Shown here piece by piece: positions 12,545-44,699 of a stretch of DNA of 64,000 bases. Position 1 is the stretch's first letter. The number at the start of each line of letters is the position of its first letter. The position numbers and the translations under genes are program-made. The notes under the pieces were generated by a model, which made no database searches, was not told the origin of the DNA, and was given only the letters and a program-made list of their open reading frames with translations. The DNA is from a phage: sequence record PZ534515.1; one strand, 5' to 3'.

Positions 12545-12593
12545 GTAAAACAATTCGAAGAAAAGGTTTGAATAATATTGGTGAGGTAACTAG

Positions 12594-13079
12594 ATGAATT
12601 ACATGGAGATTCGACCATTTGACACAGCTAATGGTGAAGGGGTTCGTGTAAGCCTCTTCGTAGCTGGTTGTAAGCATCACTGTGAAGGCTGCTTTAACAG
12701 GGAGTCTTGGAAGTTTAATGCTGGTAAAGAGTTTACTTATGCAAACCTCTACGGCATCATTAAGTTAATGGATGATAAGGCCATCAGTGGGTTGTCAATA
12801 CTTGGTGGAGAGCCTCTTGATGATAGGAACATTCAAGAGGTCACCAACATATGTAAACGTATTAAAACTGTTTATCCAGAAAAGTCTATATGGCTTTGGA
12901 CAGGTTTTCAGTTACACGAAAAAATTCATCTAGATGTGATGAAATATGTTGACGTGGTGATTGATGGTAAGTATGATTCTTCTAAACCAACAGTTAAACC
13001 ATATCGTGGTTCTGATAACCAAAACCTCTGGAGAAAAGAGTATGGGTGGCAAGGCGATTGTCAATGGCGAGCAGAGTAA
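12594..13079 (+). CDS. nrdG: anaerobic RNR activating protein (radical SAM)
   Basis: CKHHCEGC cluster near the N-terminus; about 160 aa; paired with nrdD. Confidence 0.8.
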   Translation: MNYMEIRPFDTANGEGVRVSLFVAGCKHHCEGCFNRESWKFNAGKEFTYANLYGIIKLMDDKAISGLSILGGEPLDDRNIQEVTNICKRIKTVYPEKSIWLWTGFQLHEKIHLDVMKYVDVVIDGKYDSSKPTVKPYRGSDNQNLWRKEYGWQGDCQWRAE

Positions 13080-14532: not shown

Positions 14533-14803
14533 AGAGAAGTGGGAGATTTTACCACTAGTCAGTGAGGGTGGCAATGGTTGTGAAATGTACATGATACGAG
14601 GTCATGTTCCAGAACCAATTGCACTTGAGATGGTAAACAATTTTACAGATGGCTCTTACAAAGACTTAGGAGAACCAACTGTCAAGCAACAATGGGTTAA
14701 ACCTGTACCAGACAGCACAGGCAACTGTAGTGTACTTTATCACGTTGTAGACCCTGCAAAATGCAAATCTGCAATGGCAGTAACAAACGTAACTTTTGAT
14801 TAA
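14525..14803 (+). CDS. hypothetical protein
   Basis: In-frame ATG; the track start is an alternative codon. Confidence 0.35.
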   Translation: MAKEKWEILPLVSEGGNGCEMYMIRGHVPEPIALEMVNNFTDGSYKDLGEPTVKQQWVKPVPDSTGNCSVLYHVVDPAKCKSAMAVTNVTFD

Positions 14804-14816
14804 GAGAGAGAGAGCT

Positions 14817-15698
14817 ATGAAAACTATTATTGAAGCCGTTGTCACCGCACAAGAGAAATTCTTCCACACAGAAAAATTTAATATCATCCAATTCCCATCT
14901 GGAGAAATTGGTGGAAACTTCTCTGAAGACTTTGTTAAGTTTACTGAGCGTAATGCTGGTAAGATTGACAATGTTATATTGACTGTACAGGGATATGATA
15001 AAGATACACTGTTTGCATTAGCTTTGGCTAAGGATGCCGTTGACAGTCTTGTTCCATACAAATCAGCGATGAAAACCGTTGTTTTCGGGTTCTTACCGAA
15101 TGCTCGATATGACCGCCATATATTCAAAGGTGATTCAGCAGCACTGAAAGCCTTTGCCAACCTCGTTAATGCAATGGGTTTTGATGCAGTATGTGCTCTT
15201 GACCCTCACAGTAATGTTGCAGAAAACTTATTTAAGTGTTTTCAGAGCATGAAGCAAAAAGATGTAGCAGCACACTTTGCAAGTGACCCACGCATTGATT
15301 TCTTGGTAGCCCCAGATGCAGGTGCAGCTAAGAAGACTGAAGAGACTGCTAAAGAGGTGGATAAACCATATATCACAATGTCTAAAGTACGCAACCTTAA
15401 GACTGGTGAAATTACTGGTATGCGAATCCTTGATGCTGTTGATTTGACCGATAAAACTGTCATGATTCTTGATGATATTTGTGATGGAGGCCGAACCTTC
15501 ATAGAAGCAGCTAAACATCTTCGTGAAGCAGGTGCAAAACGTGTGGAACTCTATGTAACTCATGGTATTTTCTCTAAAGGTGTTGAAAACTTACTTGACA
15601 ATGGTATTGACCATATCTACACTACAAACTCTTTAGGGGAAGCTAAAGACCGTGGATTAACACATTATGCCCAAGTTACTGTAGTAACCATTGATTGA
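14817..15698 (+). CDS. ribose-phosphate pyrophosphokinase family protein (PRPP synthetase-like; candidate ADP-ribose pyrophosphokinase)
   Basis: PRPP-binding-type motif VMILDDICDGGRTF. ATG preceded by GAGAGAGAG. About 293 aa. Confidence 0.75.
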   Translation: MKTIIEAVVTAQEKFFHTEKFNIIQFPSGEIGGNFSEDFVKFTERNAGKIDNVILTVQGYDKDTLFALALAKDAVDSLVPYKSAMKTVVFGFLPNARYDRHIFKGDSAALKAFANLVNAMGFDAVCALDPHSNVAENLFKCFQSMKQKDVAAHFASDPRIDFLVAPDAGAAKKTEETAKEVDKPYITMSKVRNLKTGEITGMRILDAVDLTDKTVMILDDICDGGRTFIEAAKHLREAGAKRVELYVTHGIFSKGVENLLDNGIDHIYTTNSLGEAKDRGLTHYAQVTVVTID

Positions 15699-15705
15699 AA
15701 CTTTA

Positions 15706-15728
15706 TAGGGGCTTCAAAGCCCCATTTT
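15706..15728 (+). terminator. stem-loop / weak terminator
   Basis: ggggcttcaaagcccc hairpin followed by ATTTTG. Confidence 0.45.
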
Positions 15729-15743
15729 GAGAGAGATTAAAAG

Positions 15744-17525
15744 ATGACTAAATCACTTTATGCAGTACCAGCAGGTTTAAATGCAGATGCTTACAAATCT
15801 GGTCATGTTTACCAGTACCCTAGTGCAACAGATTACTTGATGTTTAACCTGACACCACGTAGTGATAAATGGTTTAACAGCCCTTTAGCAATTGATGGTG
15901 TAGTAGCTTTTGGTATTCAACGTTTTGTTAAAGATTACTTGATAGACCACTGGAATACCACCTTCTTTGAACGTGACAAAAAAGAAGCAATTGATGAAAT
16001 CTTAGAAGTCATGAACGGTGTTCTGGGTAAAGATGCTATTGGTCGAGAACATTGGGAAGCACTTCACGACTTAGGTTATCTACCAGTTGAAGTATACGCT
16101 GTAGAAGAAGGCACAGTTGTCCCTATGCGTGTTCCAATGATTGTATTCCAGAACACTGTTTCAGGTTTCCATTGGGTAGCAGGATATCTGGAAGATGCTT
16201 TCTCTGCTGAGATTTGGAAGGCTTGTACCATTGCGACTATTGCATTGCACTACAAACGTATCTGTAAGAAGTGGTCTGACCTTACTTGTGACAATGACTT
16301 GCATTTACCTTATCAGTGCCATGACTTTGCTATGCGTGGTATGTCCGGCTTTACCGATGACGCATTTAACGCTGTAGGTCACTTAACCAGCTTTAAAGGG
16401 ACTGATAGCTTCCCTGCTGTATATACAGCTAAACGCATCTATGGACAGTCCTACCCAATCTCTGAGATTGGTGGTTCTGTACCAGCCACTGAACACTCTG
16501 TCATGTGTGCAAACATTGCTTGGGAAGGTGGTAATGAATTGATTGAAGAGGAAAGACGCTTTAGAGGTGAGTTGCAAACCTTCCGTCGTTTCTTAACAGA
16601 AACTTACCCAACTGGTATTGTAAGTATTGTTTCAGATACTTATAATTTCTGGAGAACTGTATCAGTGATACTACCAGAACTCCGTAAAGAGATTATGGAA
16701 CGTGATGGCAAACTGGTAATTCGTCCTGACTCTGGCGACCCTGTACATATTGTCACAGGTTATAAAGCAATCCACTTAGAGTGTGCTAAAAAGGCTTATT
16801 ACGAACACCTAAGCAAGCTGGAAGCCAGCGACACAATGTTGAATGCTGTTCTGAACATGAAGCTTGAAAACATCAACTACGGCATTGCTGGGTGGCTACT
16901 GTCAGAAGGTTACGAAATGGTTGTTGACAGAGAAGACTTTGAAGTTGCCGATACAGTGATGTTGAAAAATGCTTATATGGTTGGTTCTGCAAACGTTGTA
17001 ACACGTCCTGTAGCAGAGATTGATGGAGCTATCAAGACACTGTATAACATCTTTGGGGGAACTATCAACTCTAAAGGTTTTAAAGTACTGGATGAGCACA
17101 TCGGACTTATTTATGGTGACTCTATCACGTTGGAACGTGCAAACGAAATCTTGAAGCGTTTGTATGAAATGGGTTTTGCAAGCTCTAACGTGGTGTTTGG
17201 TGTAGGTTCTTACACTTACCAGTACATGACTCGTGACACTTTTGCATTTGCTGTCAAAGCAACTCTTGCAAGCATTGGTGGTAAAGAGATTATGCTTGCA
17301 AAAGACCCTAAAACAGATAGTGGTGTTAAGAAGTCTGCTTTTGGTGGTGTAGCACCTATGTGGGATGGTGATAAGCTGAAAGCTGTAGATGGCTATGGAT
17401 TCCAGAGCTTTGCAGATGTGCTTGAACATCCAGCTTGTGCTTTACGTTTAGTCTTTAGTGACTCTGAGCAGTTCGGTTACACATCTCTTGGTGATATTCG
17501 AAATAATATTGACAAGCAACTTTAA
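15744..17525 (+). CDS. nicotinamide phosphoribosyltransferase family protein (NAMPT-like; candidate Namat)
   Basis: 593 aa. Family assignment is by recalled family resemblance and adjacency to the Prs-like gene; an HMM search is needed. Confidence 0.65.
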   Translation: MTKSLYAVPAGLNADAYKSGHVYQYPSATDYLMFNLTPRSDKWFNSPLAIDGVVAFGIQRFVKDYLIDHWNTTFFERDKKEAIDEILEVMNGVLGKDAIGREHWEALHDLGYLPVEVYAVEEGTVVPMRVPMIVFQNTVSGFHWVAGYLEDAFSAEIWKACTIATIALHYKRICKKWSDLTCDNDLHLPYQCHDFAMRGMSGFTDDAFNAVGHLTSFKGTDSFPAVYTAKRIYGQSYPISEIGGSVPATEHSVMCANIAWEGGNELIEEERRFRGELQTFRRFLTETYPTGIVSIVSDTYNFWRTVSVILPELRKEIMERDGKLVIRPDSGDPVHIVTGYKAIHLECAKKAYYEHLSKLEASDTMLNAVLNMKLENINYGIAGWLLSEGYEMVVDREDFEVADTVMLKNAYMVGSANVVTRPVAEIDGAIKTLYNIFGGTINSKGFKVLDEHIGLIYGDSITLERANEILKRLYEMGFASSNVVFGVGSYTYQYMTRDTFAFAVKATLASIGGKEIMLAKDPKTDSGVKKSAFGGVAPMWDGDKLKAVDGYGFQSFADVLEHPACALRLVFSDSEQFGYTSLGDIRNNIDKQL

Positions 17526-22106: not shown

Positions 22107-22655
22107 ATGAAGAAGTTGATTCTAGGTTTGTGCTTAATGTTTACAGCACACTTATCTTATGCAGTTGACTGCCCAGAGCTATCAATTAGCCAAAAAGTAA
22201 ACATGTTAAAAGCTTACCAGTATGGTGAGAATAATATGGGTAAAGGTTGGGGTATCACTCTAGCTGCTATAGCCTTACAAGAGTCAGAGTTAGGTCTGAA
22301 TGTAGAGAATAAAAAGACACATGATTATGGTATCTTCCAGAATCACTTGAAGACTGTTGTAAAGCGTAACAAAATCAGTCCTAATGTGGCTAAAAAGAAA
22401 CTCTTAAAAGATTTTGACTATGCTGCAAAGGAAACACACAAAGAGCTTGAGTTTTGGACGAAGGTACATGGTCAACCAAAGTCAAAGAAGACTTTACAAA
22501 AAGTTTTAGCATCATATAATGCTGGGTATTCGTACAAAATTCCTAAAGCTAAGAAATACTCTCAAGATGTCTATAACAATATGAAAGTCATCGCTCAATG
22601 TGAATTTGCAACAAACATTTCTAAGGTAAATCATGAAAAAATTAAGAAAGTCTGA
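22107..22655 (+). CDS. secreted lytic transglycosylase (SLT domain)
   Basis: N-terminal signal peptide MKKLILGLCLMFTAHLSYA. SLT-type motifs: E-S (QESELG), GIFQ, ASYNAG. Confidence 0.6.
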   Translation: MKKLILGLCLMFTAHLSYAVDCPELSISQKVNMLKAYQYGENNMGKGWGITLAAIALQESELGLNVENKKTHDYGIFQNHLKTVVKRNKISPNVAKKKLLKDFDYAAKETHKELEFWTKVHGQPKSKKTLQKVLASYNAGYSYKIPKAKKYSQDVYNNMKVIAQCEFATNISKVNHEKIKKV

Positions 22656-23328
22656 TGAAGTACTGTGTCATGCTTACGACTTGCATCCTCATGAGTTAGG
22701 TCTTGATTCCTGTATATGGACTCCAGAACAGTGCAGGGATTTTGAAGACACTGCAAGAGAAGTTGTATGTTCACTTGAAGAGTTCCACACGTCAGAACCA
22801 GTTGTGAACGTTGTGGACAAAGAGACTGGACAATCTCTAGGTGTAAGACGTGACAGTTTAGTCATAGTCAATAAAGACCTTGTAGAAAAAGGTAACCTCA
22901 TCTTAGCAGATATTGATGGTGTTCTTACAAATTTTAATCACGAAGATTGCTCAACGGAATTGACTGATGGGTCATTCTCACAGTACACTAATCTTCTTGA
23001 CTCTGTAAGAGCAAAACCAACGTATGTTTTTAGTATTATTGATGCAATTGCTAATCATGCTGCCATTGGACTCTTGACAGCGAGAGGTGAATCTCAGAGA
23101 ATACCTACTGAGATGTTTTTAAGGCATAACATAGAGCACGATTACATGCTTTTTATGCGTGGTTTTGGAACTAACTCTATAAATGCAGAAAGTTTGAAAG
23201 TTAGGATGATTCAGTCTTGCATTCTTCCTTACTTTGATATAGTATGTTTTATAGAAGATACAGAGAATAATGTTCAGAAGGTAAACAGAATCCTTCCGCA
23301 CATTAAAACTATGTTAGTAAAACATTGA
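22633..23328 (+). CDS. HAD-superfamily hydrolase-like protein
   Basis: ILADIDGVLTN fits HAD motif I (DxDG); GLLTARGE is a candidate motif II. Confidence 0.4.
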   Translation: MKKLRKSDEVLCHAYDLHPHELGLDSCIWTPEQCRDFEDTAREVVCSLEEFHTSEPVVNVVDKETGQSLGVRRDSLVIVNKDLVEKGNLILADIDGVLTNFNHEDCSTELTDGSFSQYTNLLDSVRAKPTYVFSIIDAIANHAAIGLLTARGESQRIPTEMFLRHNIEHDYMLFMRGFGTNSINAESLKVRMIQSCILPYFDIVCFIEDTENNVQKVNRILPHIKTMLVKH

Positions 23329-23338
23329 GAGAAAACTT

Positions 23339-23803
23339 ATGAACAATATCATTACGGTAGCACTGGACGTTACGGCAAACAAATCTGAAGTAGTTCGTAA
23401 CATTATCAAAAGCAACTTTGAGGGTAAAATCTTCCGTGCTGTCAATGTAAAAGCAGATGGTAACATCCGAGAATACCGTGCTCTTCTGAATGTTAAGAAA
23501 CACGTCAAAGGTGCTGGTTCAACGACTGCACACAAAGAAAACCTGATAACTATCTATGATATGGGTATGGCTTCAGAGTTAGGTGCTGAAGGTATCGTTA
23601 AAGAAGGTGCTCCGTATCGCTCTTTCAATCTGGAAACTGCTCTTATGCTTTCCTTTACAAGTGGTTCTAAAACAACTACTTATCTCTTTACTGATGCTGC
23701 AACGGTATCTGCTATCAAGGATAGCACCGTCAAAGCTGGGGTAGCTGCTGCTGCAAAAGCTTCTTCGATGGCTGCAAATGTCCTTGCTAAAGTCCTCGGT
23801 TAA
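23339..23803 (+). CDS. hypothetical protein
   Basis: ATG with purine-rich upstream region; Ala-rich C-terminus. Confidence 0.5.
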   Translation: MNNIITVALDVTANKSEVVRNIIKSNFEGKIFRAVNVKADGNIREYRALLNVKKHVKGAGSTTAHKENLITIYDMGMASELGAEGIVKEGAPYRSFNLETALMLSFTSGSKTTTYLFTDAATVSAIKDSTVKAGVAAAAKASSMAANVLAKVLG

Positions 23804-23814
23804 GGTTAAGATAC

Positions 23815-23840
23815 AGGCTCCTTCGGGAGCCTTTTTCATT
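23815..23840 (+). terminator. rho-independent terminator
   Basis: ggctcc-ttcg-ggagcc hairpin followed by TTTTTC. Confidence 0.6.
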
Positions 23841-23855
23841 TCAGGAGATTGTTAA

Positions 23856-24203
23856 ATGACATTTAAAGAGTTCTGTCAAGCTACTTTTATAATTGTTTTC
23901 TTAGTTGGGGCAGGTGTCTGGGGAGGATACTCTTACAGAGACTATCAAGTTGCTGAAGCTGAGCTAAACAATGAGAAACTAATAAGTGTTGCTAAAGATG
24001 CTTATCAGGAAGGTTTAGCCACACTCAGCACCAATTACAAAAATGATTTGAAAGATGTGCTTGCTAAGAATAAGCATACAAAAGAGGTACTAACATATGA
24101 AAAAACTAAGCCAGAGTTTTATAATGTTTGTGTTACTGATAATTATGTCAGGGTGTTCAACGAACAAAGTGAACAGTACATTCAAAAACTCCCAAGTAAG
24201 TGA
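23856..24203 (+). CDS. i-spanin-like protein (N-terminal TM, periplasmic coiled coil)
   Basis: AGGAG upstream. N-terminal TM helix FIIVFLVGAGVWGGY. The 3' end overlaps the next lipoprotein ORF in another frame. Confidence 0.4.
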   Translation: MTFKEFCQATFIIVFLVGAGVWGGYSYRDYQVAEAELNNEKLISVAKDAYQEGLATLSTNYKNDLKDVLAKNKHTKEVLTYEKTKPEFYNVCVTDNYVRVFNEQSEQYIQKLPSK

Positions 24204-24366
24204 GAGTGACAAGTACACTCAAGAAGAGTCAAGATTCACTGTCAAAGGTAATACTGGTAGTGATGTGGCAGCAGCCCTTGAGTTTTATCGTGATGGTTTT
24301 TACCAGTGCACAATCAAAGCTAATAACCTTATTGATATGATTTTATTAGGAAACAAACAGCAATGA
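24097..24366 (+). CDS. o-spanin-like outer-membrane lipoprotein
   Basis: Signal peptide with lipobox (LLIIMSGC). Start is embedded in the 3' end of the preceding gene in a different frame, the classic spanin arrangement. Confidence 0.4.
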   Translation: MKKLSQSFIMFVLLIIMSGCSTNKVNSTFKNSQVSESDKYTQEESRFTVKGNTGSDVAAALEFYRDGFYQCTIKANNLIDMILLGNKQQ

Positions 24367-24632
24367 CAGAGAATGAAGATACGTTCTATGTAGAAGGGTA
24401 CTTACTGCTACCACGACCAAAAGAAACTTATATGCGGGTTGATTTCTCACCAACCATTATGGATAATGTGATGTGTCATATCTTTATGCAAGGTGTCACA
24501 GCACAACTTAAGCATGTTGGTAAAGAGTGCAAAATAAAGGTTGACACTCATCCAGAAATCAAAGAGAATCACTACACATGGTTCTTACCAGACTCTAAAG
24601 AAATCTTAGCAGTTCTTAAAACGAGGAAGTAA
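24363..24632 (+). CDS. hypothetical protein
   Basis: ATG overlapping the preceding stop. Confidence 0.45.
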   Translation: MTENEDTFYVEGYLLLPRPKETYMRVDFSPTIMDNVMCHIFMQGVTAQLKHVGKECKIKVDTHPEIKENHYTWFLPDSKEILAVLKTRK

Positions 24633-24634
24633 CT

Positions 24635-24961
24635 ATGCAGATTAATGGAAGAGACTTTGTAGCCGTTTACTACGAGAAAGATAAAGAAGTTGGAGTAGCA
24701 CAAGTATCTTATGGTAATGGTAAGTGGCTATATGGAACAATCGCAGTAGTCGGAACAAGAAGTGATACAAAAACTTTTAAAGATTGTGTTGACCTTCTTG
24801 AAGAATCCATCCACAATCATTGGTGTCTGATATGGATGACTGACAACGAAGTGATAGAACGCTTCAAAAAGATTGGTATCAACATTGATAGCATTGAGCA
24901 TGTTGATTTATACGAGCTAACTGAGAAGGTAAACTATGAGAGTAATACTAGCCAGAGATAA
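24635..24961 (+). CDS. hypothetical protein
   Basis: ATG 3 nt after the preceding stop. Confidence 0.45.
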   Translation: MQINGRDFVAVYYEKDKEVGVAQVSYGNGKWLYGTIAVVGTRSDTKTFKDCVDLLEESIHNHWCLIWMTDNEVIERFKKIGINIDSIEHVDLYELTEKVNYESNTSQR

Positions 24962-25163
24962 AAAGACACGGAAACTTATCAGGTCAGCAGTGTTCATTGG
25001 ACGAAATGAGGTCATACCATTTACAGCAAATGATGTGATAGCTTACCGGAAGAACTTAGTATTCACTGACTGTTTACGTGGCTTCATCTCTGAACCATTG
25101 GAAGACTTTAAAAGTCGCTGTGGTAAAGGTATCATCATTCAAGAGGCAATTATTCATGGCTGA
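24936..25163 (+). CDS. hypothetical protein
   Basis: ATG with GAGAAGG upstream. Confidence 0.4.
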   Translation: MRVILARDKKTRKLIRSAVFIGRNEVIPFTANDVIAYRKNLVFTDCLRGFISEPLEDFKSRCGKGIIIQEAIIHG

Positions 25164-25356
25164 CTTCTGCAAAGACTGTGCTATCGAAATGTTCGGACGT
25201 GATACAGGTGACTTAAAAGGTCTTATCACTGAAGATGACTTTAAAGCTGGCTATGCAATGCCAGTAATCTGTGAAGGTTGTGGATGTATCTGGGTAGACC
25301 ACGAAGGACAACGTGTAAAACCTTCAGAAGATAAAGAATCTTGGGAGAGATGCTAA
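25156..25356 (+). CDS. small Cys-rich protein (C-x-x-C ... C-x-x-C)
   Basis: In-frame ATG with AAGAGG upstream; CKDC ... CEGCGC. Confidence 0.35.
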   Translation: MADFCKDCAIEMFGRDTGDLKGLITEDDFKAGYAMPVICEGCGCIWVDHEGQRVKPSEDKESWERC

Positions 25357-26142
25357 ATGGGTATTGTAAAAATCATCAATGGGGATATCTTCTCCGCATT
25401 TGATAAAGGTAAGTTTGATATCATTGGTCACGGTTGCAACTGTATGAACTTAATGGGTGCGGGTATCGCTGACAAGATTTCTAAACTTTACCCAAAAGCA
25501 TATGAGACCGATACAGAAGTTTATCTGTATACAGGTGGTATAGGCCACAAACCCTGTGAAAATTTACTAGGCAACTTCTCTGTAGCACGTTTAAAACAAG
25601 GCCGTATAGCTAACCTTTACACTCAGCTTCACACTGGTAAAGATGCCAGATACAGTGCTTTAGAGTCATCTCTGAAACAGCTTAACAGATACTGTGAAGT
25701 TAATCAGTTGAAGAAAGTTGGTTTACCTATGATTGGTGCAGGTATCGGTGGACTTGACCCTCAAGCCGTCACCGTTATCATTAATCAGGTGATGAAGAGT
25801 GTAGATGTCTATCTATATGTCTACGAAGGAGAGATGTACCACAAGTTACGCTCAGGTTGGAAGAACTACTGTGAACCAGAATACTTTGCAGGTGTAGTAG
25901 TGTTCACAGATAACACAGTTACCCTCTTCAGACGAAGAAAAGGTAAGGTACATCAAAGTAACCCTCCGGTTGAAAAGATGTCTCTAAGTAACGCTCTAGT
26001 TACCCACCTGTCGAAGAGCAATCACAGAATTGCAGTAACATTTGGCAGTGATGCAGATACATATATCTATGCAAGAAATGATGAGGATGTTGAGGAAATT
26101 TTCTCTTCACCGGAAGTTACCTTCTTAGACGCAAAGAACTAA
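25357..26142 (+). CDS. macrodomain protein (ADP-ribose binding/processing) with C-terminal extension
   Basis: IINGDIFS ... FDIIGHGCNCMNLMGAGIA matches the macrodomain N-terminal signature; later GLPMIGAGIGGLDP. About 100 aa of C-terminal extension has unknown fold. Confidence 0.65.
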   Translation: MGIVKIINGDIFSAFDKGKFDIIGHGCNCMNLMGAGIADKISKLYPKAYETDTEVYLYTGGIGHKPCENLLGNFSVARLKQGRIANLYTQLHTGKDARYSALESSLKQLNRYCEVNQLKKVGLPMIGAGIGGLDPQAVTVIINQVMKSVDVYLYVYEGEMYHKLRSGWKNYCEPEYFAGVVVFTDNTVTLFRRRKGKVHQSNPPVEKMSLSNALVTHLSKSNHRIAVTFGSDADTYIYARNDEDVEEIFSSPEVTFLDAKN

Positions 26143-26207
26143 GAAACTCTGTAGAATATTCACAATAGACTAAGCCTTTCTTATCTGGTAAATTTTCAGG
26201 TAAGGAG

Positions 26208-26408
26208 GGCTTTTTCATTTTAGAATTGTGCAGGTAGAGTTCTGTAGAGAAATCTGTAGAGAGAATTTTGAACTCCAAAGAGAAAATTTATTTTCAAACT
26301 GTGCAGGTAATCTCCAAAGAGCTTTTTCATTTTCAAAACGTGCAGAACCCACTCAGGTCGGGCAAGAAAAATCATTTTAGAATTGTGCAGGTAGGTGGGT
26401 GCAGGTGG
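26208..26408 (+). repeat. four direct repeats, consensus ttt-CATTTT-N2-AA-N2-GTGCAGGTA
   Basis: Copies at about 26208-26237, 26283-26311, 26320-26348 and 26367-26408 (the last with a duplicated GTGCAGGTgg tail), in a non-coding interval after the macrodomain gene. Confidence 0.6.
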
Positions 26409-26569
26409 GAATGTCGCCATTTCTCACAAGGCTACCACATCTGGAAATAAAAGTCAACAGAAAAATTTGTAGCGGATTGAAAAATAATTATTGATTGTAG
26501 TTCTGTTTTGTGGTAGTCGCGCGCACCCGTTTCATTACAATTCTTGCAAAAATATTTTTAAAATTCCTA

Positions 26570-26598
26570 TTGACTCTTTGAGTATGGTTATCTAATAT
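26570..26598 (+). promoter_or_regulatory. sigma70-like promoter (TTGACT-17 bp-TAATAT)
   Basis: Hexamers with 17 bp spacer, upstream of the first gene of the small-gene array. Confidence 0.5.
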
Positions 26599-26647
26599 TT
26601 GCATCAGACGGGCAAGCAAGCCCACTTCCTAAACTGGAGAATCCAAA

Positions 26648-26854
26648 ATGATGTACAGTCGCGAATTGATGGTTACAACCAACGTTAACACAAAGGCAAA
26701 ACGTTTTTATATGCAAGTGTGCGGCGCATGGCGTAGAATATCAGAAGCTGATTATTGCAACTATGTAGAAACGGCAATTAACTCTAATTGCTACCTAACA
26801 AAGAATACAAAGCGACATATAAAACAGACAGCGGTTTACTATTACGATATATAA
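26648..26854 (+). CDS. hypothetical small protein (array gene 1)
   Basis: ATG with GGAG upstream; followed by a type A module. Confidence 0.45.
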   Translation: MMYSRELMVTTNVNTKAKRFYMQVCGAWRRISEADYCNYVETAINSNCYLTKNTKRHIKQTAVYYYDI

Positions 26855-26942
26855 AAAGTACTTTACAAGGGGCTTAAAAGTTGATATCTTAAGCCCCAGA
26901 TAAAGAGCTTTACTAACTTACCTTAAACTAGGAGATTCTAAA

Positions 26943-27323
26943 ATGGCTTATCGTGCACCGAAATTCATCAATAAAGACAACTTCCGCAACGCACTGGAGA
27001 AGTCACTTGATGAAAAATTTAACGGTAAATTGATTATTGTTCACGCATTCAATTTTAAGTATGATATTAATGGGAATAAAATCAACCATTACACGGCAAC
27101 CATGATAGATGGTACACTATCAAGTGAAAAAGCCGTACTGAATGCACTTGCTGGACGCGGTAAAAACCTGATAAAATGTGATAAGCGACGTTATCAGGGT
27201 GGCGCATATGGTTATGATGATGCTGTTTACCATCTTGAAAACATGGGCTATTCAGTGGAAAAAGCTGGAGTGTCTCAAATAATCGGCAGTGACGGCTATG
27301 TGACAATTTTCAAAATTAACTAA
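26943..27323 (+). CDS. hypothetical protein (array gene 2)
   Basis: Conserved leader taaactaggagattctaaaATG. Confidence 0.5.
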   Translation: MAYRAPKFINKDNFRNALEKSLDEKFNGKLIIVHAFNFKYDINGNKINHYTATMIDGTLSSEKAVLNALAGRGKNLIKCDKRRYQGGAYGYDDAVYHLENMGYSVEKAGVSQIIGSDGYVTIFKIN

Positions 27324-27411
27324 TAAAGTACTTTACAGGGGGCTTATAGTTCGATAAAGTAAGCCCCAGATAAAGAGCTTTACCACTAAATCCTAAATTG
27401 GAGATTCAAAA

Positions 27412-27702
27412 ATGGCTATTATTAAAAACGTTGTAATTCCTGCAAAAACTCGTGATGACGCTCGCATCATGGCGAAAAAGTTAGGCGGGAAAGTGGTTGA
27501 CAACGGAAAACAAACTGCTGTAAGGTGGAACGTGAAGGCGGATAAACAAATGAATTTAAAAAATTCACCAATAAACTTTTTTACATGTGTAAACACTATC
27601 GGGAAAACGAATGTATACACTAAAAAGGCATATATCAGACGCATCGCCATGACGTCACCTATTCGCACAATGAGAAGTCATGCAAAGCTGAAAATTAAGT
27701 AA
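27412..27702 (+). CDS. hypothetical basic protein (array gene 3)
   Basis: Conserved leader; Lys/Arg-rich product. Confidence 0.5.
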   Translation: MAIIKNVVIPAKTRDDARIMAKKLGGKVVDNGKQTAVRWNVKADKQMNLKNSPINFFTCVNTIGKTNVYTKKAYIRRIAMTSPIRTMRSHAKLKIK

Positions 27703-27792
27703 TAGAGTACTTTACAGGGGGCTTAAAAGCTGATATCTTAAGCCCCAGATAAAGAGCTTTACCACTCAATCCTTAAACTAGGAGATTCAAAA

Positions 27793-28305
27793 ATGAAAAC
27801 TGTAGACGCTACCTTTGAAGTTGTAAAAGAAAAATTTTCCATCATTTACGAAGCTGTCAATTGCTACGAAGCAAGCCATAATCTTGATAATTGGAAGTTT
27901 ACAGATGACCATCAAGGCGGTGTGACTATTAAAAACCCCAACTGTCAGCGTAATGGATTTAAATATGCAATTCCTTTACATTACAGCCTTAAACAGCTTT
28001 CAATTGACTATGCAAAACAAGGCCGGGAAAATCCATCGAAAGAGGCTTACATCAGCTTACAGAAAGAACTAGAAAGAGATTTAGAGGCTTCAGAATATAA
28101 CATCGCCGCGAAAGTTGTAGATGCAAACGGTAGCACGGTTTTAGAGAGTTTTTATATTGGTTATGCTTTCGATTGGTGCTACAGTGACGGCGATGATTTA
28201 GATGACAGACTAAAAGAGGAAGTGAACAACGCAGACGCAGAATCTGAAGTATTAGAACGCTTGGAAGCATTAAAAGATTCAGTGATGAATATCTTTAAGA
28301 ACTAA
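27793..28305 (+). CDS. hypothetical acidic protein (array gene 4)
   Basis: Conserved leader. Acidic residues clearly outnumber basic ones by eye. Confidence 0.5.
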   Translation: MKTVDATFEVVKEKFSIIYEAVNCYEASHNLDNWKFTDDHQGGVTIKNPNCQRNGFKYAIPLHYSLKQLSIDYAKQGRENPSKEAYISLQKELERDLEASEYNIAAKVVDANGSTVLESFYIGYAFDWCYSDGDDLDDRLKEEVNNADAESEVLERLEALKDSVMNIFKN

Positions 28306-28397
28306 ATAGATTTCTTTACACGGGGCTAACAAGCTGGTAGGATAGCCCCAGATAAAGAGATTTATCAAATAAAGCCCTTAAACTAGGAGATTCAAAA

Positions 28398-28694
28398 ATG
28401 AAATTATCAAATCAAGTGCGTGAAAATCTAAGCAAATTACTCAATAAAATTGATTTTATCGAGACATCAAGAAATAGTCATGATGTTATGGAATGGTTAC
28501 ACGGCAAAATAAAAGGCCGTCGCGTAGTAATTTGCTTATGGAATAGTTGCAGGGAGTATAAAAAGCCTGTATTGCAAATTAATGTTTATGATGATACTTT
28601 TAAAAGTCCTGTTAAATCTGAAAGTGATTTATTAGAAGCTTATGAGATAACTGTAAATGGTAAAGTATCACGCAGAGAGGTAACACCATGCTAA
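28398..28694 (+). CDS. hypothetical protein (array gene 5)
   Basis: Conserved leader. Confidence 0.5.
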   Translation: MKLSNQVRENLSKLLNKIDFIETSRNSHDVMEWLHGKIKGRRVVICLWNSCREYKKPVLQINVYDDTFKSPVKSESDLLEAYEITVNGKVSRREVTPC

Positions 28695-29020
28695 TGATGG
28701 GCATCACTGCAATCATCGCCATTATAGCACTTTATAAGGCTTACAGCGCCTACAATCTGGCAAGTAAGGCAATCACGCAACAGGTCAATAATAGCCTTGT
28801 AATGAGCTTTCTGGAGCGTTTAAGTGATGAGCAAATAAAGCGGCTAGAAATGAGCTTCAGATTCAAAGCGAAAACCTATCAGATAAGTGATATCTTCAAA
28901 GATGATTTTCAGTTAGTCGATGATTATAATTCACTGATAAATGCTTTAAATATCAGTGACTTAAAAGACTACTACGCTGTAATTGTTCAAGAATTGAGCA
29001 AACGAAAAAATTTCTCTTGA
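28688..29020 (+). CDS. hypothetical membrane protein (array gene 6)
   Basis: ATG overlapping the upstream stop; N-terminal TM helix MLMMGITAIIAIIALY. Confidence 0.45.
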   Translation: MLMMGITAIIAIIALYKAYSAYNLASKAITQQVNNSLVMSFLERLSDEQIKRLEMSFRFKAKTYQISDIFKDDFQLVDDYNSLINALNISDLKDYYAVIVQELSKRKNFS

Positions 29021-32945: not shown

Positions 32946-33000
32946 GGGGCTAAATAGCCCCAGATACCTTTACAGCCCCTTTCCAATAGGGGCTTTTTTA
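32946..33000 (+). terminator. tandem hairpins / rho-independent terminator closing the array
   Basis: ggggctaaatagcccc, then agcccctttccaataggggct followed by TTTTTT. Confidence 0.6.
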
Positions 33001-34530
33001 CGTCTTATGAAATGCCTATACAATCCTTTCCCTTTCCTTTCCAGAATCTTACTAGACCTTAAAAAGCAATAACTCTATAGCTTACTCTATAGCCTTTTAT
33101 CAAATCAACTTAAATATAAGCCCATAACCCGAAAGGGAAGGGCAACCATTTAAACGCTCTATAAAGCCCTATAACAGCCTTATCAACCCAACTTAAGGGA
33201 TTGCATTACCTCACCCTTAAAAGCCCTTTATAAAGCTTTCTAGAGCCTTAAAAGAATCTTATAAGGTTGTAAGCTTTATCATCTCGTTAGTATCTTATGA
33301 ACTACTAGAAAGGGCTTGTTAGTGTTTTAAAAGTATGTTATAGGGGCTATAAAGTTGCTTAAAAGTAGCTTAAAAGTTACGTAAATGCTAGCCCCCTTAA
33401 CATTTTCTTAACAATTTCTTAACAAACCCTACATAGTTATGCTTTTAAGGCACTTGTTAGCAACTTGTTAGCCCCTTGTTAAATCTCTGTTAAAACCATG
33501 TAAAAGCCTTGTAAGAGTCTTTGACATAGCCTTTAAAGCCCCTGTAAAGCCCTATAAAGAGCTTTCTACATAGTTGGGGTGTAATTACTAGGAAGAGACT
33601 TAAAAGAGCTTACAAGGAGCTATAGAGAGCTTTTAAGAGGGCTATTTAGAGAATCACTAAGAAAGAGAGGGAACGATAAGAAAAGAGATAGTGACCATGT
33701 TAATAGCTTGTTAAAAAGATTAAACACTTGTTAGGAACTTGTTAATTATCTTAACAAAATAACTCTTTAAAATTAACTTGTTAGCTCTTGTTAGTCATCT
33801 GTTAAGCATCTGTAAAGACTATTCAGCACTTGTTAGAAAACTGTTAAGCCCTTGTTAGTTCTGTTAAGAAACTGTTAAGACCTCTGAAGAGATGTTAAGA
33901 AGATGTAGCAACTGTTAAGAGATTGTTAATGATATTTTAAAATTCTGCAAAGGGGATGTTACAGGGATGTTAAGGGCTACCAAGCAGATATACATCTTCT
34001 ACAGATATTTTTGAGTTCCTTCAAAGACCCTAAAAAATGACTTGATAGTCCTATTTTATAAAAATTTTAAAATTCTGAATAATTACCTAGACAGTCTTTT
34101 AAAAATACAGGCATAAACAGGCTTATAAGATACCTTGTTAGTACCGTGTTAGACCTTGTGAGATAAGGTCTGTAAAGATATTCCTGTTAAGTTTGTTAAA
34201 ACAGTCTATATAGAGGCTTAGTAATACCTAGTGAACACCTATAGAGGGTAACATAGCTGACATAGAGATTAAGAGGTGTATAGGGGCTTCTAAGAGTGTG
34301 TAGATGTATGGTTAAGGTGATTGTATAGGTTGTTAAGAAGGCTTGTTAGAAGAGTGTTTAGAAGGGCTATACAGAGGGGCTATTAAGACCACTAGATAGT
34401 TACTAAGATACTATATAGTACTATATAACTATATATAGAGAGTAAGCTTAAGGAGGTTGTTAAGAAGGATAGATATTTTATTCACATATGATGGTGACCC
34501 AGAGGTTGGGACAACCGATAAAATTTTATA
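33000..34530. repeat. ORF-free zone with dense short degenerate repeats (YTGTTAR family and cttaaaag/tataaag family)
   Basis: No ORF of 60 aa or more on either strand across about 1.5 kb. More than 30 copies of cttgttag / ctgttaag / atgttaag; between 33700 and 33960 they recur about every 11 bp. Bounded by convergent terminators. Confidence 0.65.
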
Positions 34531-34565
34531 AAAATTAAAAAGCCCCCAATTAAGGAGGCTCTTAA
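34530..34565 (-). terminator. rho-independent terminator (minus strand)
   Basis: Reverse complement reads gagcctcc-ttaatt-gggggct hairpin followed by TTTTTAATTTTT, downstream of the last minus-strand gene. Confidence 0.5.
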
Positions 34566-34571
34566 GATATT

Positions 34572-35120
34572 TTAAATCAATGTTTCCAGAACTGTCTTCA
34601 GTGATGACTTGGTTGTCTGATAAAAATGAGTAAATCCGTTGTTGTTATCAAATATCTGCATCATGATATCATCTCCCTTGATTGGGTACACTCGGATATC
34701 ATAATGGAACCCATTAAAGACAGCAGAACCATTACAGAATGCACTAAAGTCATCCACTGAGATGTACTCTTCATGACCTGTGATTTTTATACAGATACCT
34801 TTACTCGGTCTCTTAGGGTTGATATCTTCCATCACAGACATACTCTGTCCACCAAGAGATACCATAGTGACCACTTTACGGTTCTTCTGTCTAAAGTACA
34901 TTTTAACTTTCTGTAAAGTGTCTTCATAGAACGGATAAGACTTCTCTACAAAGATTCCTTCTAATGGCTCTTTACCGTTTACAATACCTCTGGTATGACG
35001 TACTGAGAAGATAAGTTGCTCTAGTATGTCAAGGCTTTCTTCGGAGAGTGCTTCCCGAATATCATTCCAGTCAAGGACTAGGTAGTTGCCTTCAACTTCT
35101 TTTAAGTTATCTTTTTTCAT
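34572..35120 (-). CDS. hypothetical protein
   Basis: In-frame ATG (MKKDNLK...); the track start at 35165 is a TTG. Confidence 0.45.
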   Translation of the reverse strand: MKKDNLKEVEGNYLVLDWNDIREALSEESLDILEQLIFSVRHTRGIVNGKEPLEGIFVEKSYPFYEDTLQKVKMYFRQKNRKVVTMVSLGGQSMSVMEDINPKRPSKGICIKITGHEEYISVDDFSAFCNGSAVFNGFHYDIRVYPIKGDDIMMQIFDNNNGFTHFYQTTKSSLKTVLETLI

Positions 35121-35133
35121 ATCTATCACACCA

Positions 35134-35598
35134 TTATCGTAAAACTTGGTAATCTGGAACAGCAAACTTGTTGTCTTTGTTTTTAATGAGGTCTTCTTTT
35201 GTTACAAAGAATGTAAGACCACATAAGTGTGTATAGTGGCTACCATACTCAAATACTTTAAGTAAGTATTCGCCATCATCATAAACATGCTCTACTACAC
35301 CTTTTGCAACAATCTTTCCTGTCTTGAAGTCTTTAAGAGGGTATACGTTACCAACTTTAGGAACTGTTTTCATCTCAGGTTCTTTTAGTTTCTCACCAAC
35401 TTCTACATCACCTAGTAAGTGAGAACTCTCAAAAGCTACATATTGCATATAAGCTTCTGAGCATTCCCAGATAAAGCAATGTACAAGAGCCTTAGCAGCA
35501 TGTCTTGAACAATTCAACTTATCACAAATCTCTTTGTACATTTCATCTTTAGTTGAGTTGTCAAGCATTGCTTTTTGAACAACTTCTTTAATTTTCAT
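35134..35598 (-). CDS. hypothetical protein
   Basis: ATG start; Cys-rich N-terminal half. Confidence 0.45.
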   Translation of the reverse strand: MKIKEVVQKAMLDNSTKDEMYKEICDKLNCSRHAAKALVHCFIWECSEAYMQYVAFESSHLLGDVEVGEKLKEPEMKTVPKVGNVYPLKDFKTGKIVAKGVVEHVYDDGEYLLKVFEYGSHYTHLCGLTFFVTKEDLIKNKDNKFAVPDYQVLR

Positions 35599-35651
35599 TT
35601 CGCTACCTTCTAAGTTTCTACAAAGGGGCTATCAAGTAACCCCTCAAGTTA

Positions 35652-35876
35652 TTACTCAGACTTTTCAGTCTTCTTATCAGATTTCTTACTAGTCTTCTTC
35701 TCAGCTTTCTGTTCAGGTTCCTTCTCAGAAGTTGCCTTGATAACCATATCAAGAAGCTCTGATAGGTCACTCTTCAGCAAAGTAACAGGCTGCTCATTGT
35801 AGAAGTTTTTGTCAAGATAAACTTTGAACTCTTCAATAGAAGGAAATCCAAAAATTGGTACAGGTGTCTTAATCAT
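35652..35876 (-). CDS. hypothetical protein with Lys/Glu-rich tail
   Basis: ATG start; C-terminal EKEPEQKAEKKTSKKSDKKTEKSE. Confidence 0.4.
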   Translation of the reverse strand: MIKTPVPIFGFPSIEEFKVYLDKNFYNEQPVTLLKSDLSELLDMVIKATSEKEPEQKAEKKTSKKSDKKTEKSE

Positions 35877-35952
35877 TACTTAGTTTCTCCATAGGCATCT
35901 TTTAAGATTGCCTTGTTAATCATTTCAGCGATTGCAAAACGAACACATACAG

Positions 35953-36456
35953 CTATAATTGTAGGTTGCATTCTTTACTTACCTCTTCAAGTTTAACCTC
36001 AGAGTCCTTAAGTCGTTTCTTATGAACTCTGAATCTCATTAGTGAGATGATGATACCAACTAAAGGAACAGCATACAAGTACCAAACATCATATACCTTT
36101 GCAGTAATCTGTGTAATGGTTAAGTCTTGAGCTATGGAACTGATTGCTGATACTGCCAGTAATGTTGCTAAGAAAAATGCCAGTACCATGACAATACTTA
36201 AACAACCTCTGGCATGGTGTTCATGCTTAATGCACTTATTCTTTTCGTCAACAACCCTGTTGTAGTCATTTGTAAAGTCTCTGTAGAAAGCTTTCAAATA
36301 TTCTTTATTGTAGCCTTCAAAGCAACCTGTACCATACCAATAATCACCACCAAAATGTGCTATGATACCGGTATCTCCATTTGGTTTGGTTACTCTCAAA
36401 GAAGTATGATGACGAGTATCCTGATAATCTATCTTGTATCTTTCTTCGTAAATCAT
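35953..36456 (-). CDS. hypothetical membrane protein
   Basis: In-frame ATG with GAGAGG upstream (track start at 36486 is a GTG). Central TM segment LSIVMVLAFFLATLLAVSAI. Confidence 0.45.
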   Translation of the reverse strand: MIYEERYKIDYQDTRHHTSLRVTKPNGDTGIIAHFGGDYWYGTGCFEGYNKEYLKAFYRDFTNDYNRVVDEKNKCIKHEHHARGCLSIVMVLAFFLATLLAVSAISSIAQDLTITQITAKVYDVWYLYAVPLVGIIISLMRFRVHKKRLKDSEVKLEEVSKECNLQL

Positions 36457-36671
36457 TTTCCAACCTCTCTCAATCGTTTGTTCCACTCAAGGTCAACAAG
36501 TCTTTGCAGGACTTTCCCTCTAGGTGTTACACCTTTTAAATCTGCATCGTAGCAACGGTAAAAGTCACCTTCAGCATGTTTACCATAACATTTTCTGATA
36601 TTCTGACTTCTACGATATTGCTCTAACAGGGACAGTTTGTAGTAATCTTCAACTGTAGTTAGTTTTTTCAT
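36453..36671 (-). CDS. hypothetical protein
   Basis: ATG overlapping the neighbouring stop. Confidence 0.4.
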   Translation of the reverse strand: MKKLTTVEDYYKLSLLEQYRRSQNIRKCYGKHAEGDFYRCYDADLKGVTPRGKVLQRLVDLEWNKRLREVGK

Positions 36672-37213
36672 TCTTTCACCATAGCATTTCTGAACTGACG
36701 TTGAGTTTCTCTTGTAATTTCGTCTGGAGTAAACCCTGCTTTCAGCATATCTCTGAAAAGAACTTCTAAGTGATTCTTTTCAATAATGTAAATTGCATTC
36801 TGCACAGATGCCTTAAGTTCCTTCAGGTCACTGCTAATTTCTTCGCACTTGTTGACAATCTCTGTATCAACTTTCTTAAAGACTGGCATGGTATATCTAC
36901 GACCACCATTGGCAGCATCCATGAAAAATTTAAAAGATTCCTCAGAGTCCTTTAAAGCAATCCCTATAAAGTTCTTGTAAGCACCTGTGAAAGCTAAAGA
37001 CTCAATCTCAGCAGTTGAGTATACAGTTCCTGCACACAGTCTTGCGGAGGTACTAAATGTGTGGTTTGGTGTTATGTCAAAGTCTAAGTTCTTCAGTGGT
37101 CGAAAATAAACTGTGCCAGTATGCGAGATATGTGTTACAACAGCCTCCACACTCTTTGAAGGGTTCTGTTTAACATACAAAATAATTTTATCGTGTTCTT
37201 TCACTTTAGGCAT
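36668..37213 (-). CDS. hypothetical protein
   Basis: ATG start confirmed by reading the reverse complement. Confidence 0.45.
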   Translation of the reverse strand: MPKVKEHDKIILYVKQNPSKSVEAVVTHISHTGTVYFRPLKNLDFDITPNHTFSTSARLCAGTVYSTAEIESLAFTGAYKNFIGIALKDSEESFKFFMDAANGGRRYTMPVFKKVDTEIVNKCEEISSDLKELKASVQNAIYIIEKNHLEVLFRDMLKAGFTPDEITRETQRQFRNAMVKE

Positions 37214-37285
37214 ATCTATTCTCCAGAAACTAAAAAGGGAACTACCTCTCGATAGCTCCCATCATAGTTAATATTGTATACTTGG

Positions 37286-37867
37286 TCAAGAGTATTTTTT
37301 AGGCAGTAATGCGCTGCGCTTGTTGCTCTCTTCACTCAATAGTGCGATAAATTCATCACCTTTCCCTTTCCACGGGCTGAATGAAGGGATATGCTCACGA
37401 ATGGCTTCAATCACTGTCTTCAGTGCTGTATTTTTCATCCACCAGTCAGAATCTGCTGATGCTACAACATAGTACCCGCCATCATCGGTCAGAATTGGCT
37501 CTGAGATACACGGTGAAATCAGAGTGGTGATAATTGAACCGTTGTTCATATAGTATGTGCGCTTCATAACCTTTTCAAGAAGCTTGTGAAGGTCACCAAA
37601 CAGTGTTACAAGTTCTTTATGGTCAATGTCTTTTTCGAGATTAGCTCGATACTTCAAAAGTGCAGCATCAACTTCTCTGTCATTAAACTTGAAGTACTGG
37701 ACTTCATCAACAAGGCAGACACTAATGTTATTAACATTCATAGTCAACTTGCAAACTTTTGCAGGGGAATTGATACTTGGTTGAAAAAGTGCAACACACC
37801 CTTCAATGTTTCCAAAATGTTGGACTAATGTTACTTGTGGGATAATATCCTGTTGCTCTTCGGACAT
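37286..37867 (-). CDS. hypothetical protein
   Basis: ATG start. Confidence 0.45.
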   Translation of the reverse strand: MSEEQQDIIPQVTLVQHFGNIEGCVALFQPSINSPAKVCKLTMNVNNISVCLVDEVQYFKFNDREVDAALLKYRANLEKDIDHKELVTLFGDLHKLLEKVMKRTYYMNNGSIITTLISPCISEPILTDDGGYYVVASADSDWWMKNTALKTVIEAIREHIPSFSPWKGKGDEFIALLSEESNKRSALLPKKYS

Positions 37868-38211
37868 TACAGTTTCCTCATTAAATACTTTTTAAGTTGT
37901 GTGTTAGGTTTCTCAAAAACTTCTATAGAAGATATCTTGACAGATTCACCACGCATACCTGTATGCTTGAATATGTAGTACTCTAACATCCCTATATACT
38001 TTGCTGGTAAGTCATGTTTGACATACACCGTTACAGAATCTTCAAATTCAACAACCTTTGTACCATCTTTGTAGTTGAACTCTTTAGGATGGTTATAGTT
38101 GTCAATGTCATACATTAAAAAGAGTCTTTTCCGTTGCATGTCAAGCTTATTGGTTAAAGACTCTTTGATATCTGAGAAGTTTTTATAGACCGTTACGTGG
38201 AGCTTACTCAT
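37867..38211 (-). CDS. hypothetical protein
   Basis: Start overlaps the upstream stop. Confidence 0.45.
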   Translation of the reverse strand: MSKLHVTVYKNFSDIKESLTNKLDMQRKRLFLMYDIDNYNHPKEFNYKDGTKVVEFEDSVTVYVKHDLPAKYIGMLEYYIFKHTGMRGESVKISSIEVFEKPNTQLKKYLMRKL

Positions 38212-38497
38212 CGTTAAACTCTCTGACGAAGAAATAGTTGACTTTATTGTTACCTACCATAAGGTCAAAGCAGGTGTTCTCAAAAGGTTTGTTGTAGGCA
38301 TCATATGAAGTGTACGTATCAGCTACTTGTTTAGTATTGAGCTTTTTACTTGATGGGTTTAAGAGGCCACCATACAGTTTCTTGATAGCCTCTTCTACAA
38401 CAGACCAGATAATTTCGTCAGTAATTTCTTCGTACAGGTCAAGTTCACGCTCTAGTGAGAAGTCACAAATAGGGAAAATAACCTGTACTTTACTCAT
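38204..38497 (-). CDS. hypothetical protein
   Basis: Start overlaps the upstream stop. Confidence 0.45.
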   Translation of the reverse strand: MSKVQVIFPICDFSLERELDLYEEITDEIIWSVVEEAIKKLYGGLLNPSSKKLNTKQVADTYTSYDAYNKPFENTCFDLMVGNNKVNYFFVREFNDE

Positions 38498-38916
38498 TAA
38501 CGAATAACCTGTGTGACTTGAATTGCTTCAGTTACTGATAAGTCCCCAACAGTCTCTTCTTTGATGAAGGTGAAGGTTAGCTCAATAGGTTCTTGCTCTT
38601 CTTCTTCTTCTTCTTCTTCTTCTTGCTCAACTGGAACACCGTTAAGCTCATCAAAGATTGATTGAGTCGTCCAGTCTTCACCACCATCTGGGTAGTGGAT
38701 TGCGTAAAGAGGGAACTCCCTGTCAAACCAACCAAATACAGGGCAGCCATCTTCATCATCTCGCACTCGATGAAGGGTGCTTCCAGACCCTGTAAAACAA
38801 AGGAATAAATCTCCGTTGCACTTGAATATTACTGCGTCGGCAAAACCAATGTCCTCTCGACCATCATGGCCAAACGTGTCCACCTTTACTTGAATACTTC
38901 TAACATCTTTATTCAT
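38497..38916 (-). CDS. hypothetical protein with poly-Glu tract
   Basis: Contains EQEEEEEEEEEQE encoded by a CTT/GAA trinucleotide run. Confidence 0.45.
   Translation of the reverse strand: MNKDVRSIQVKVDTFGHDGREDIGFADAVIFKCNGDLFLCFTGSGSTLHRVRDDEDGCPVFGWFDREFPLYAIHYPDGGEDWTTQSIFDELNGVPVEQEEEEEEEEEQEPIELTFTFIKEETVGDLSVTEAIQVTQVIR
38598..38624 (-). repeat. (CTT)9 trinucleotide repeat (GAA on the coding strand) encoding poly-Glu
   Basis: cttcttcttcttcttcttcttcttctt read directly. Confidence 0.8.
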
Positions 38917-44692: not shown

Positions 44693-44699
44693 AATTAAT

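Follow-up and report, generated by a model that had tools for sequence, protein, structure and literature searches.

NARP1 is a pair of phage enzymes whose function has been demonstrated experimentally for Bas63 and SPbetaL1: Adps converts ADP-ribose (ADPR) to ADPR-PP, and Namat then uses ADPR-PP and nicotinamide to form NAD+ (bioRxiv 10.1101/2024.02.11.579819). A January 2026 preprint has described a bacterial defence that bears on this pathway (Osterman et al., bioRxiv 10.64898/2026.01.28.702374). RES-domain defence proteins called aRES, which were cloned from E. coli, Klebsiella and Enterobacter, convert NAD+ to nicotinamide and ADPR-1''-phosphate, a product that NARP1 cannot use. According to the same work, some phages add to their NARP1 operon a gene for Adpp, a Poa1p-like macro protein. 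The purified Adpp of Vibrio phage Gary (KNV71_gp137) converts ADPR-1''-phosphate (ADPR-1P) to ADPR, i.e. to the substrate of NARP1, and the three-gene pathway, called NARP1-AP, overcomes aRES.

In that survey, a macro gene was counted only if it was located within two genes of NARP1, and Table S1 of the preprint contains no Escherichia, Salmonella or Felix phage (10.64898/2026.01.28.702374). Because of this adjacency rule, the screen did not reach the Felix O1 lineage, to which the phage of the NARP1 discovery itself belongs.

Two other kinds of macro proteins serve as references. Poa1p of Saccharomyces cerevisiae (PDB 6LFQ) is an ADP-ribose-1''-phosphate phosphatase, a eukaryotic housekeeping enzyme of tRNA splicing. 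In DarG, a macro hydrolase is joined to a domain that binds the toxin, and the phage proteins AdfM (PhiKZ gp104 and PhiPA3 gp108) are grouped here with DarG2.

A two-domain macro protein and NARP1 in a Felix O1-like phage

The DNA analysed here, hereafter the window, is a stretch of 64,000 nucleotides (record PZ534515.1) of a Felixounavirus, a Felix O1-like myovirus of the Ounavirinae. E. coli, Klebsiella and Enterobacter, the sources of the cloned aRES, are hosts of this phage group. The following features of the window are central to our analysis.

25357..26142, + strand: whole macro gene, an ORF of 261 residues coding for a macrodomain and an orphan C-terminal domain; orthologue of bas63_0095 ('putative phosphatase')
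25357..25824, + strand: macrodomain of the Poa1p/Adpp-like type, residues 1-156, with the motifs H25-G-C-N28-C...M-G-A-G-I-A, N86-L-Y-T-Q90 and I-G-A-G-I-G-G-L-D134
25825..26139, + strand: predicted linker helix (~residues 158-167) and orphan β-rich C-terminal domain ending in a helix, residues 157-261
14796..15698, + strand: Adps, the Prs-like ADP-ribose pyrophosphokinase of NARP1 (Pfam Pribosyltran and Pribosyl_synth; 94% nucleotide identity to the Bas63 operon)
15744..17525, + strand: Namat, the NAMPT-like nicotinamide ADPR-transferase of NARP1 (Pfam NAPRTase and NAMPT_N; same length as bas63_0080)

The ORF at 25357-26142 is real, and its first ~156 residues are a genuine macrodomain, with the macro α/β fold and the two Gly-rich ADPr-binding loops of the PF01661 (Macro domain) superfamily. 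The protein is 97% identical to bas63_0095 of phage JohannRWettstein (Bas63), and phrog_335 covers it entirely (E=2.7e-113). More than 130 genomes of Escherichia, Salmonella and Shigella phages are 92-97% identical to the window over a 4-kb stretch around the macro gene, which belongs to the conserved core genes of the group (258 records with at least 80% protein coverage). Its public annotations vary between 'putative phosphatase', 'O-acetyl-ADP-ribose deacetylase' and 'hypothetical protein'.

A preliminary description of this DNA had proposed an N-terminal macrodomain, a C-terminal extension without recognisable motif and, in the same phage, a candidate pair of NAD+-reconstituting enzymes. 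All three proposals were borne out. The macrodomain spans residues 1-156, the C-terminal ~105 residues match neither a Pfam family nor a protein of the PDB, and the pair encoded at 14796-17525 is NARP1, with 94% DNA identity to the validated bas63_0079-0080. By comparison with the 882-nt bas63_0079, the true start codon of Adps is probably the ATG at about 14817. The NARP1 genes are still annotated in public records as ribose-phosphate pyrophosphokinase and nicotinamide phosphoribosyltransferase.

The macro gene is located 7.8 kb downstream of Namat on the same strand, a distance of 15 genes in Bas63, and judging from terminator-like sites it apparently belongs to a separate transcription unit. 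We determined whether this arrangement is found in relatives. Two-domain homologues were recovered down to ~32% overall identity. In two of the most distant of them (P0012 and P0019), the macro domains of which are ~40-42% identical to that of the window, the macro gene has the same location, being preceded by rIIA, rIIB, a lysin gene and a HAD/PNKP-like gene, and a gene for a Namat-like protein of 594-610 residues is found immediately upstream of rIIA. Similarly, the gene order in Erwinia phage M7 (Kolesnikvirus) is Prs-like, NAMPT-like, rIIA, rIIB, ..., gp101. The NARP1-macro arrangement is conserved across Ounavirinae-like phages. Such co-occurrence in a single lineage is consistent with functional coupling of the two loci, but it does not constitute independent evidence for it.

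The interval between the two loci also contains a 231-residue ORF (22633-23328) that overlaps the end of the lysin-like gene and has no Pfam match in our scan. Its counterparts in relatives give weak HAD_PNKP matches, and that of Bas63 (bas63_0087) is annotated as 'polynucleotide kinase'. This ORF may code for a second phosphatase or a kinase.

The macrodomain groups with Adpp enzymes

We built a profile from ten Adpps of Table S1, without Felix sequences, on which the macro protein scores 110 bits (E=8e-35). BLASTP against the Gary Adpp aligned the whole macro domain, with 27% identity (E=3e-14). The macro protein shares four motifs with Adpp and Poa1p, which in the Table S1 Adpps read H-x-(C/A)-N-C...M-G-x-G-I-A, P-E/K-A-Y-E-A/T-D, N-L/V-Y-(G/T)-Q and I-G-x-G-x-x-G-G. 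The first of them reads HGCNCMNLMGAGIA in the macro protein, HQCNCFCRMGRGIA in the Gary Adpp and HSCNCNGSWGGGIA in Poa1p. As in the Adpp active site, this motif is accompanied in the macro protein by NLYTQ and IGAGIGGLD, and there is no catalytic Lys. The NARP1-adjacent Adpp of Acinetobacter phage phiAbaA1 harbours the same HGCNC and YTQ variants as the macro protein, and a tblastn search directly matched Pseudomonas phage JG004, one of the phages with an Adpp in Table S1. We searched the construct sequences of the preprint for alanine variants to learn which Adpp residues had been mutated, and found none.

The macro protein also differs from the Adpps in several respects. The Gary enzyme, at the identity given above, belongs to the same clade and has the same HxxNC, N-x-Y-x-Q and IGxGxxGG motifs. 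However, Adpps are single-domain proteins of ~150-170 residues (all 128 Table S1 entries examined), whereas the macro protein has 261 residues and an extra folded domain. In addition, Adpp genes are located in or near the NARP1 operon, whereas the macro gene is 7.8 kb and 15 genes away, yet in the same genome and on the same strand. As for Poa1p, its sequence similarity to the macro protein is detectable only over residues 1-60; it has a Ser in place of the Gln and is devoid of the C-terminal domain.

The Adpp-like macro clade characterised by the 'TQ' motif is large, with 2,803 phage records including Tk.4 of RB69 and T4. The RB69 tk.4 product (positions 1486-1950 of our record L009) has the HGCNC and NLYTQ motifs and scores 106 bits on the Adpp profile. 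Tk.4 of T-even phages and other phage 'NLYTQ' macros (phrog_335, 'phosphatase') thus share their motifs and clade with the macro protein of the window, but they consist of a single domain. To our knowledge, T-even phages are devoid of NARP1. For comparison, NARP1 phages number 859, i.e. far fewer than the records of the 'TQ' clade (10.64898/2026.01.28.702374). As the clade is far wider than NARP1 and includes Tk.4, membership in it is no proof of coupling to NARP1 or of a single substrate. T4 devoid of adfA and adfN is still resistant to DarTG2, and it may encode further factors (PMC11825919). Since Tk.4 lacks the lysine of DarG, it is not an obvious candidate for such a factor.

Comparison with DarG, AdfM and TARG1

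Sequence searches of the PDB, both single-sequence and profile-based, ranked TARG1/OARD1 and DarG at the top, and NCBIfam and PADLOC both label the macro protein as DarG. We examined this assignment residue by residue and at the level of families. The match to the DarG equivalog model NF048014 of NCBIfam scores 50.6 bits for a cut-off of 250, and only positions 4-152 of the 338 positions of the profile align. The C-terminal part of the macro protein does not align to the DarG profile, no similarity to the DarT-binding domain of DarG was found, and no ART-like or DarT neighbour is present in the annotated gene context.

The macro sequences of the DarG proteins of Mtb, T. aquaticus (Taq) and Thermosipho, and those of TARG1 and Poa1p, were taken from the PDB (100% matches). 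The DarG sequences were verified against entries 5m3i and 5m31, and AdfM was obtained from the PhiPA3 genome. A tblastn search of plasmids for annotated DarG genes yielded only generic 'macro domain-containing protein' entries. For TARG1, D125 corresponds to chain index 119 of 4j5r, and with this offset of 6, K84 is the K of 'LITKK'.

In the MAFFT alignment, 'NFPTKKHW' of DarG, 'MFPTKERW' of AdfM and 'LITKKRA' of TARG1 align with 'NLYTQLH' of the macro protein. Gln90 replaces the catalytic lysine of DarG (K80; Taq/Mtb), PhiKZ AdfM (K78) and TARG1 (K84), and it is invariant in all 19 of the 19 two-domain family members. The assignment of K78 as the lysine of PhiKZ AdfM is from earlier work (PMC13309987). 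The catalytic dyad of TARG1 is absent altogether, with K84 replaced by Q90 and D125 by G131. N28 aligns with N22 of DarG, but this Asn is found class-wide and is not discriminating.

Family-level comparisons gave the same picture. The macro protein scores 42 bits on a DarG/AdfM profile versus 110 bits on the Adpp profile, and the scores of Mtb DarG and of AdfM on Adpp profiles are 67 bits and 18-39 bits, respectively. In a neighbour-joining tree, a simple distance tree, the two-domain Felix group nests within the phage clade that contains the Adpps, and DarG, AdfM and TARG1 are found on a separate branch. Finally, tblastn with Taq DarG retrieved another, far smaller group of phages (291 records: chimalliviruses, jumbo Erwinia phages and G7C-like phages), with no Felixounavirus among the 40 of these 291 matches that were listed. 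DarG2 and AdfM thus differ from the macro protein by their catalytic Lys, where the latter has Gln, and by their clade; the macro protein also has no DarT partner. As the defining feature of the DarG/AdfM type, its catalytic lysine, is not found, we disfavour this assignment. The macro protein is Poa1p-like or Adpp-like, rather than DarG-like or MacroD-like.

Proposed function and alternative readings

We consider it the most likely reading, at about even chances, that the macro protein is an Adpp-type ADPR-1''-phosphate phosphatase that feeds ADPR to NARP1 in trans, countering RES-type NAD+ phosphorolysis. In the proposed scheme, aRES would split NAD+ phosphorolytically, yielding nicotinamide and ADPR-1''-phosphate, a compound of no use to NARP1. 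The macrodomain would bind ADPR-1''-phosphate and remove its 1''-phosphate to release free ADPR, which Adps and Namat, encoded 7.8 kb upstream on the same strand, would turn into ADPR-PP and then NAD+. The macro protein, Adps and Namat would then constitute an unlinked 'NARP1-AP' pathway. It is from the macro fold, the membership in the Adpp clade, the motif pattern without the DarG/TARG1 lysine and the presence of NARP1 in conserved synteny that we infer a substrate in common with the Gary Adpp and action in trans with NARP1. Several points speak against this proposal. The main one is the breadth of the 'TQ' clade, which may have a wider or different range of substrates. In addition, the macro gene is 15 genes from NARP1 and apparently in another transcription unit, the work on Adpp consists of a single preprint, no more than 27% of residues are shared with the validated enzyme, and the extra domain is left unexplained. 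Macro subfamilies are, moreover, notoriously promiscuous in vitro.

It is possible, if fairly unlikely, that the macro protein is instead a general hydrolase of ADP-ribose derivatives not tied to NARP1, i.e. a stand-alone counter-defence protein or detoxifier. Its candidate substrates would be O-acetyl-ADPR, ADPr attached through phosphate to the ends of RNA or DNA, proteins or RNA that are ADP-ribosylated by host defence ARTs, or ADPr-based signals. The same macro clade is present in thousands of phages, RB69 with its Tk.4 among them, and we know of no NARP1 in T-even phages; the macro gene is located outside of the NARP1 operon, and some databases carry the 'O-acetyl-ADP-ribose deacetylase' annotation. 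All of this would fit a general hydrolase, as would a survey by the Aravind laboratory, in which phage macros are seen as mainly targeting several kinds of soluble ADPr derivatives (PMC9503650). However, the only clade member studied experimentally is an ADPR-1P phosphatase, NARP1 and the macro gene are in conserved synteny across the lineage, and the sequence points to no specific alternative substrate.

A catalytically inert ADP-ribose reader or sponge, with the C-terminal domain as its effector or adaptor, appears very unlikely. The essential lysine of its closest relatives with solved structures is missing from the macro protein, which has an additional C-terminal domain, and non-catalytic macro readers exist (PMC9503650). 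Nevertheless, the validated Adpp shares this Gln and these loops, so that inactivity does not follow from the missing lysine; conservation of the H-x-x-N-C and G-x-G loops is strict, and a monomeric, single-site, enzyme-like fold would make a poor sponge.

Finally, we hold it to be highly improbable that the macro protein is an orphan antitoxin of the DarG2/AdfM kind, which would free the thymidines of phage DNA from the ADP-ribose attached by DarT2 and bind DarT by its C-terminal domain, since in spite of the DarG labels in databases it has the invariant Gln90 in place of the catalytic lysine, belongs to a separate clade and scores 50.6 bits where 250 are required. The preliminary description had envisaged either the reversal of DarT-type ADP-ribosylation or the processing of ADP-ribose-derived signals. 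The former is not supported by these data, for DNA ADP-ribosylation in particular, whereas the latter, taken as the processing of an ADP-ribose derivative linked to the NAD+ module, is the reading that we favour.

If the macro protein is indeed an Adpp-type phosphatase, Bas63, the model NARP1 phage, and with it all phages of the Felix O1 group, which are in wide use for the biocontrol of Salmonella and E. coli, would already possess the associated phosphatase that renders NARP1 effective against RES-type NAD+ phosphorolysis, encoded 15 genes away. The reported 15% prevalence of NARP1-AP would then be an underestimate owing to the adjacency rule, and the unlinked Adpp-like macros of thousands of phages, including Tk.4 of T-even phages, would merit re-examination. 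In bas63_0095, there is an immediately testable gene in a genetically tractable phage. The Adpp kind of protein itself has already been described; the novelty here lies in an Adpp-like macro encoded apart from its presumed partner operon and fused to an orphan domain.

The C-terminal domain

Residues ~157-261 are predicted to form a linker helix, six β-strands and a terminal helix (pLDDT 80 and pTM 0.71 for the domain alone), and we regard this modelled fold as provisional. The only BFVD match of the domain is the orthologue encoded by phage SUSP2, and the TM-score of this match is poor (0.38). When the C-terminal 105 residues were used alone in a word-indexed search, no homologues were retrieved. 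In an exhaustive HMM search of 1.84 billion protein representatives, the domain was found only in this phage lineage and always C-terminal to the macrodomain; the remaining matches are two truncated gene calls (P0033 and P0038) and long repetitive proteins. The latter, of β-propeller or retroelement types, match in multiple stretches, and we judged them spurious as homologues of the C-terminal domain.

Conserved positions of the domain are N170, P174, F177 and G179 at its start and D232 and Y236 in a late strand. Its net charge ranges from -5 to +4 across the family, which gives no hint of a dedicated nucleic-acid binder or DNA mimic. The C-terminal domain evolves faster than the macro domain, by a factor of 1.4-2.6. 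The median pairwise dN/dS values are 0.19 for the former and 0.10 for the latter (28 Felixounavirus pairs), and those relative to Mooglevirus are about 0.4 and 0.18, respectively. The C-terminal domain is under purifying selection. The syntenic protein of Erwinia phage M7, gp101 (260 residues; positions 11998-12780 of our record L008), has the same Adpp-like 'NLYTQ' macro, and its ~110-residue tail has no detectable similarity to the C-terminal domain of the Felix O1 group. The purifying selection and the unrelated tail in M7 together indicate that the tail is a real, selected and replaceable module on a conserved enzyme. It represents a lineage-restricted domain without known fold relatives, fused to a putative anti-defence enzyme.

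Partner docking, target binding and oligomerisation are candidate roles for this domain. One specific version is that the fast-evolving domain is a target-binding module that recognises a host NADase, for example a RES-domain protein, or docks onto Adps or Namat, which would make the macro protein a two-pronged anti-defence protein. We consider this version unlikely. If true, product clean-up and stoichiometric binding would be combined in one protein, in a logic parallel to that of DarG with its macro hydrolase and toxin-binding domains, here with an unrelated, previously unseen domain. The replacement of the tail in M7 would then represent retargeting in an arms race. We also considered the aRES inhibitor aRad1, which neither the C-terminal domain nor any ORF of the window resembles.

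Flanking elements and other features of the window

Two elements directly flank the macro gene.

25156..25356, + strand: small ORF of 66 residues with a CxxC...CxxC pattern (bas63_0094), zinc-ribbon-like; its stop codon directly abuts the ATG of the macro gene
26172..26212, + strand: terminator-like hairpin with a 17-pair stem followed by a T-run, 30 nt past the stop codon of the macro gene; consensus scan, pattern match only

The small ORF is annotated as a 201-nt CDS (hypothetical protein) in Bas63, PHB11, BPS15Q2 and other phages, and it is probably co-transcribed or translationally coupled with the macro gene. We considered it as a conserved Zn-ribbon partner gene and rejected this idea. 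The position abutting the macro gene is occupied in one distant relative (L002/L007) by a different CxxC...CxxC ORF, of 63 residues, and in another (L003) by an unrelated ORF of 103 residues. As the CxxC ORF is absent from the latter, and as the two CxxC ORFs, found in Felixounavirus and in the former, are not evidently homologous, we did not include it in any system.

The hairpin probably marks the end of the transcription unit. An Rfam scan of positions 23000-29000 gave no matches. Four imperfect direct repeats with the core ATTTT[AC][AG]AA..GTGCAG(GT), spaced by 73, 39 and 45 nt, are found at 26206-26390, in a gene-poor stretch just after the hairpin. The 64 kb contain no further copy of this pattern (four matches for 0.03 expected), which resembles an iteron or operator array.

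Elsewhere in the window, 26 tRNA genes are clustered at 44616-49613 on the + strand, as is typical of Felix O1-like phages. Both the GC skew and the AT skew change sign in the region ~33000-42000, being negative between about 33 and 42 kb, which points to either a gene block on the opposite strand or an altered polarity of replication or transcription.
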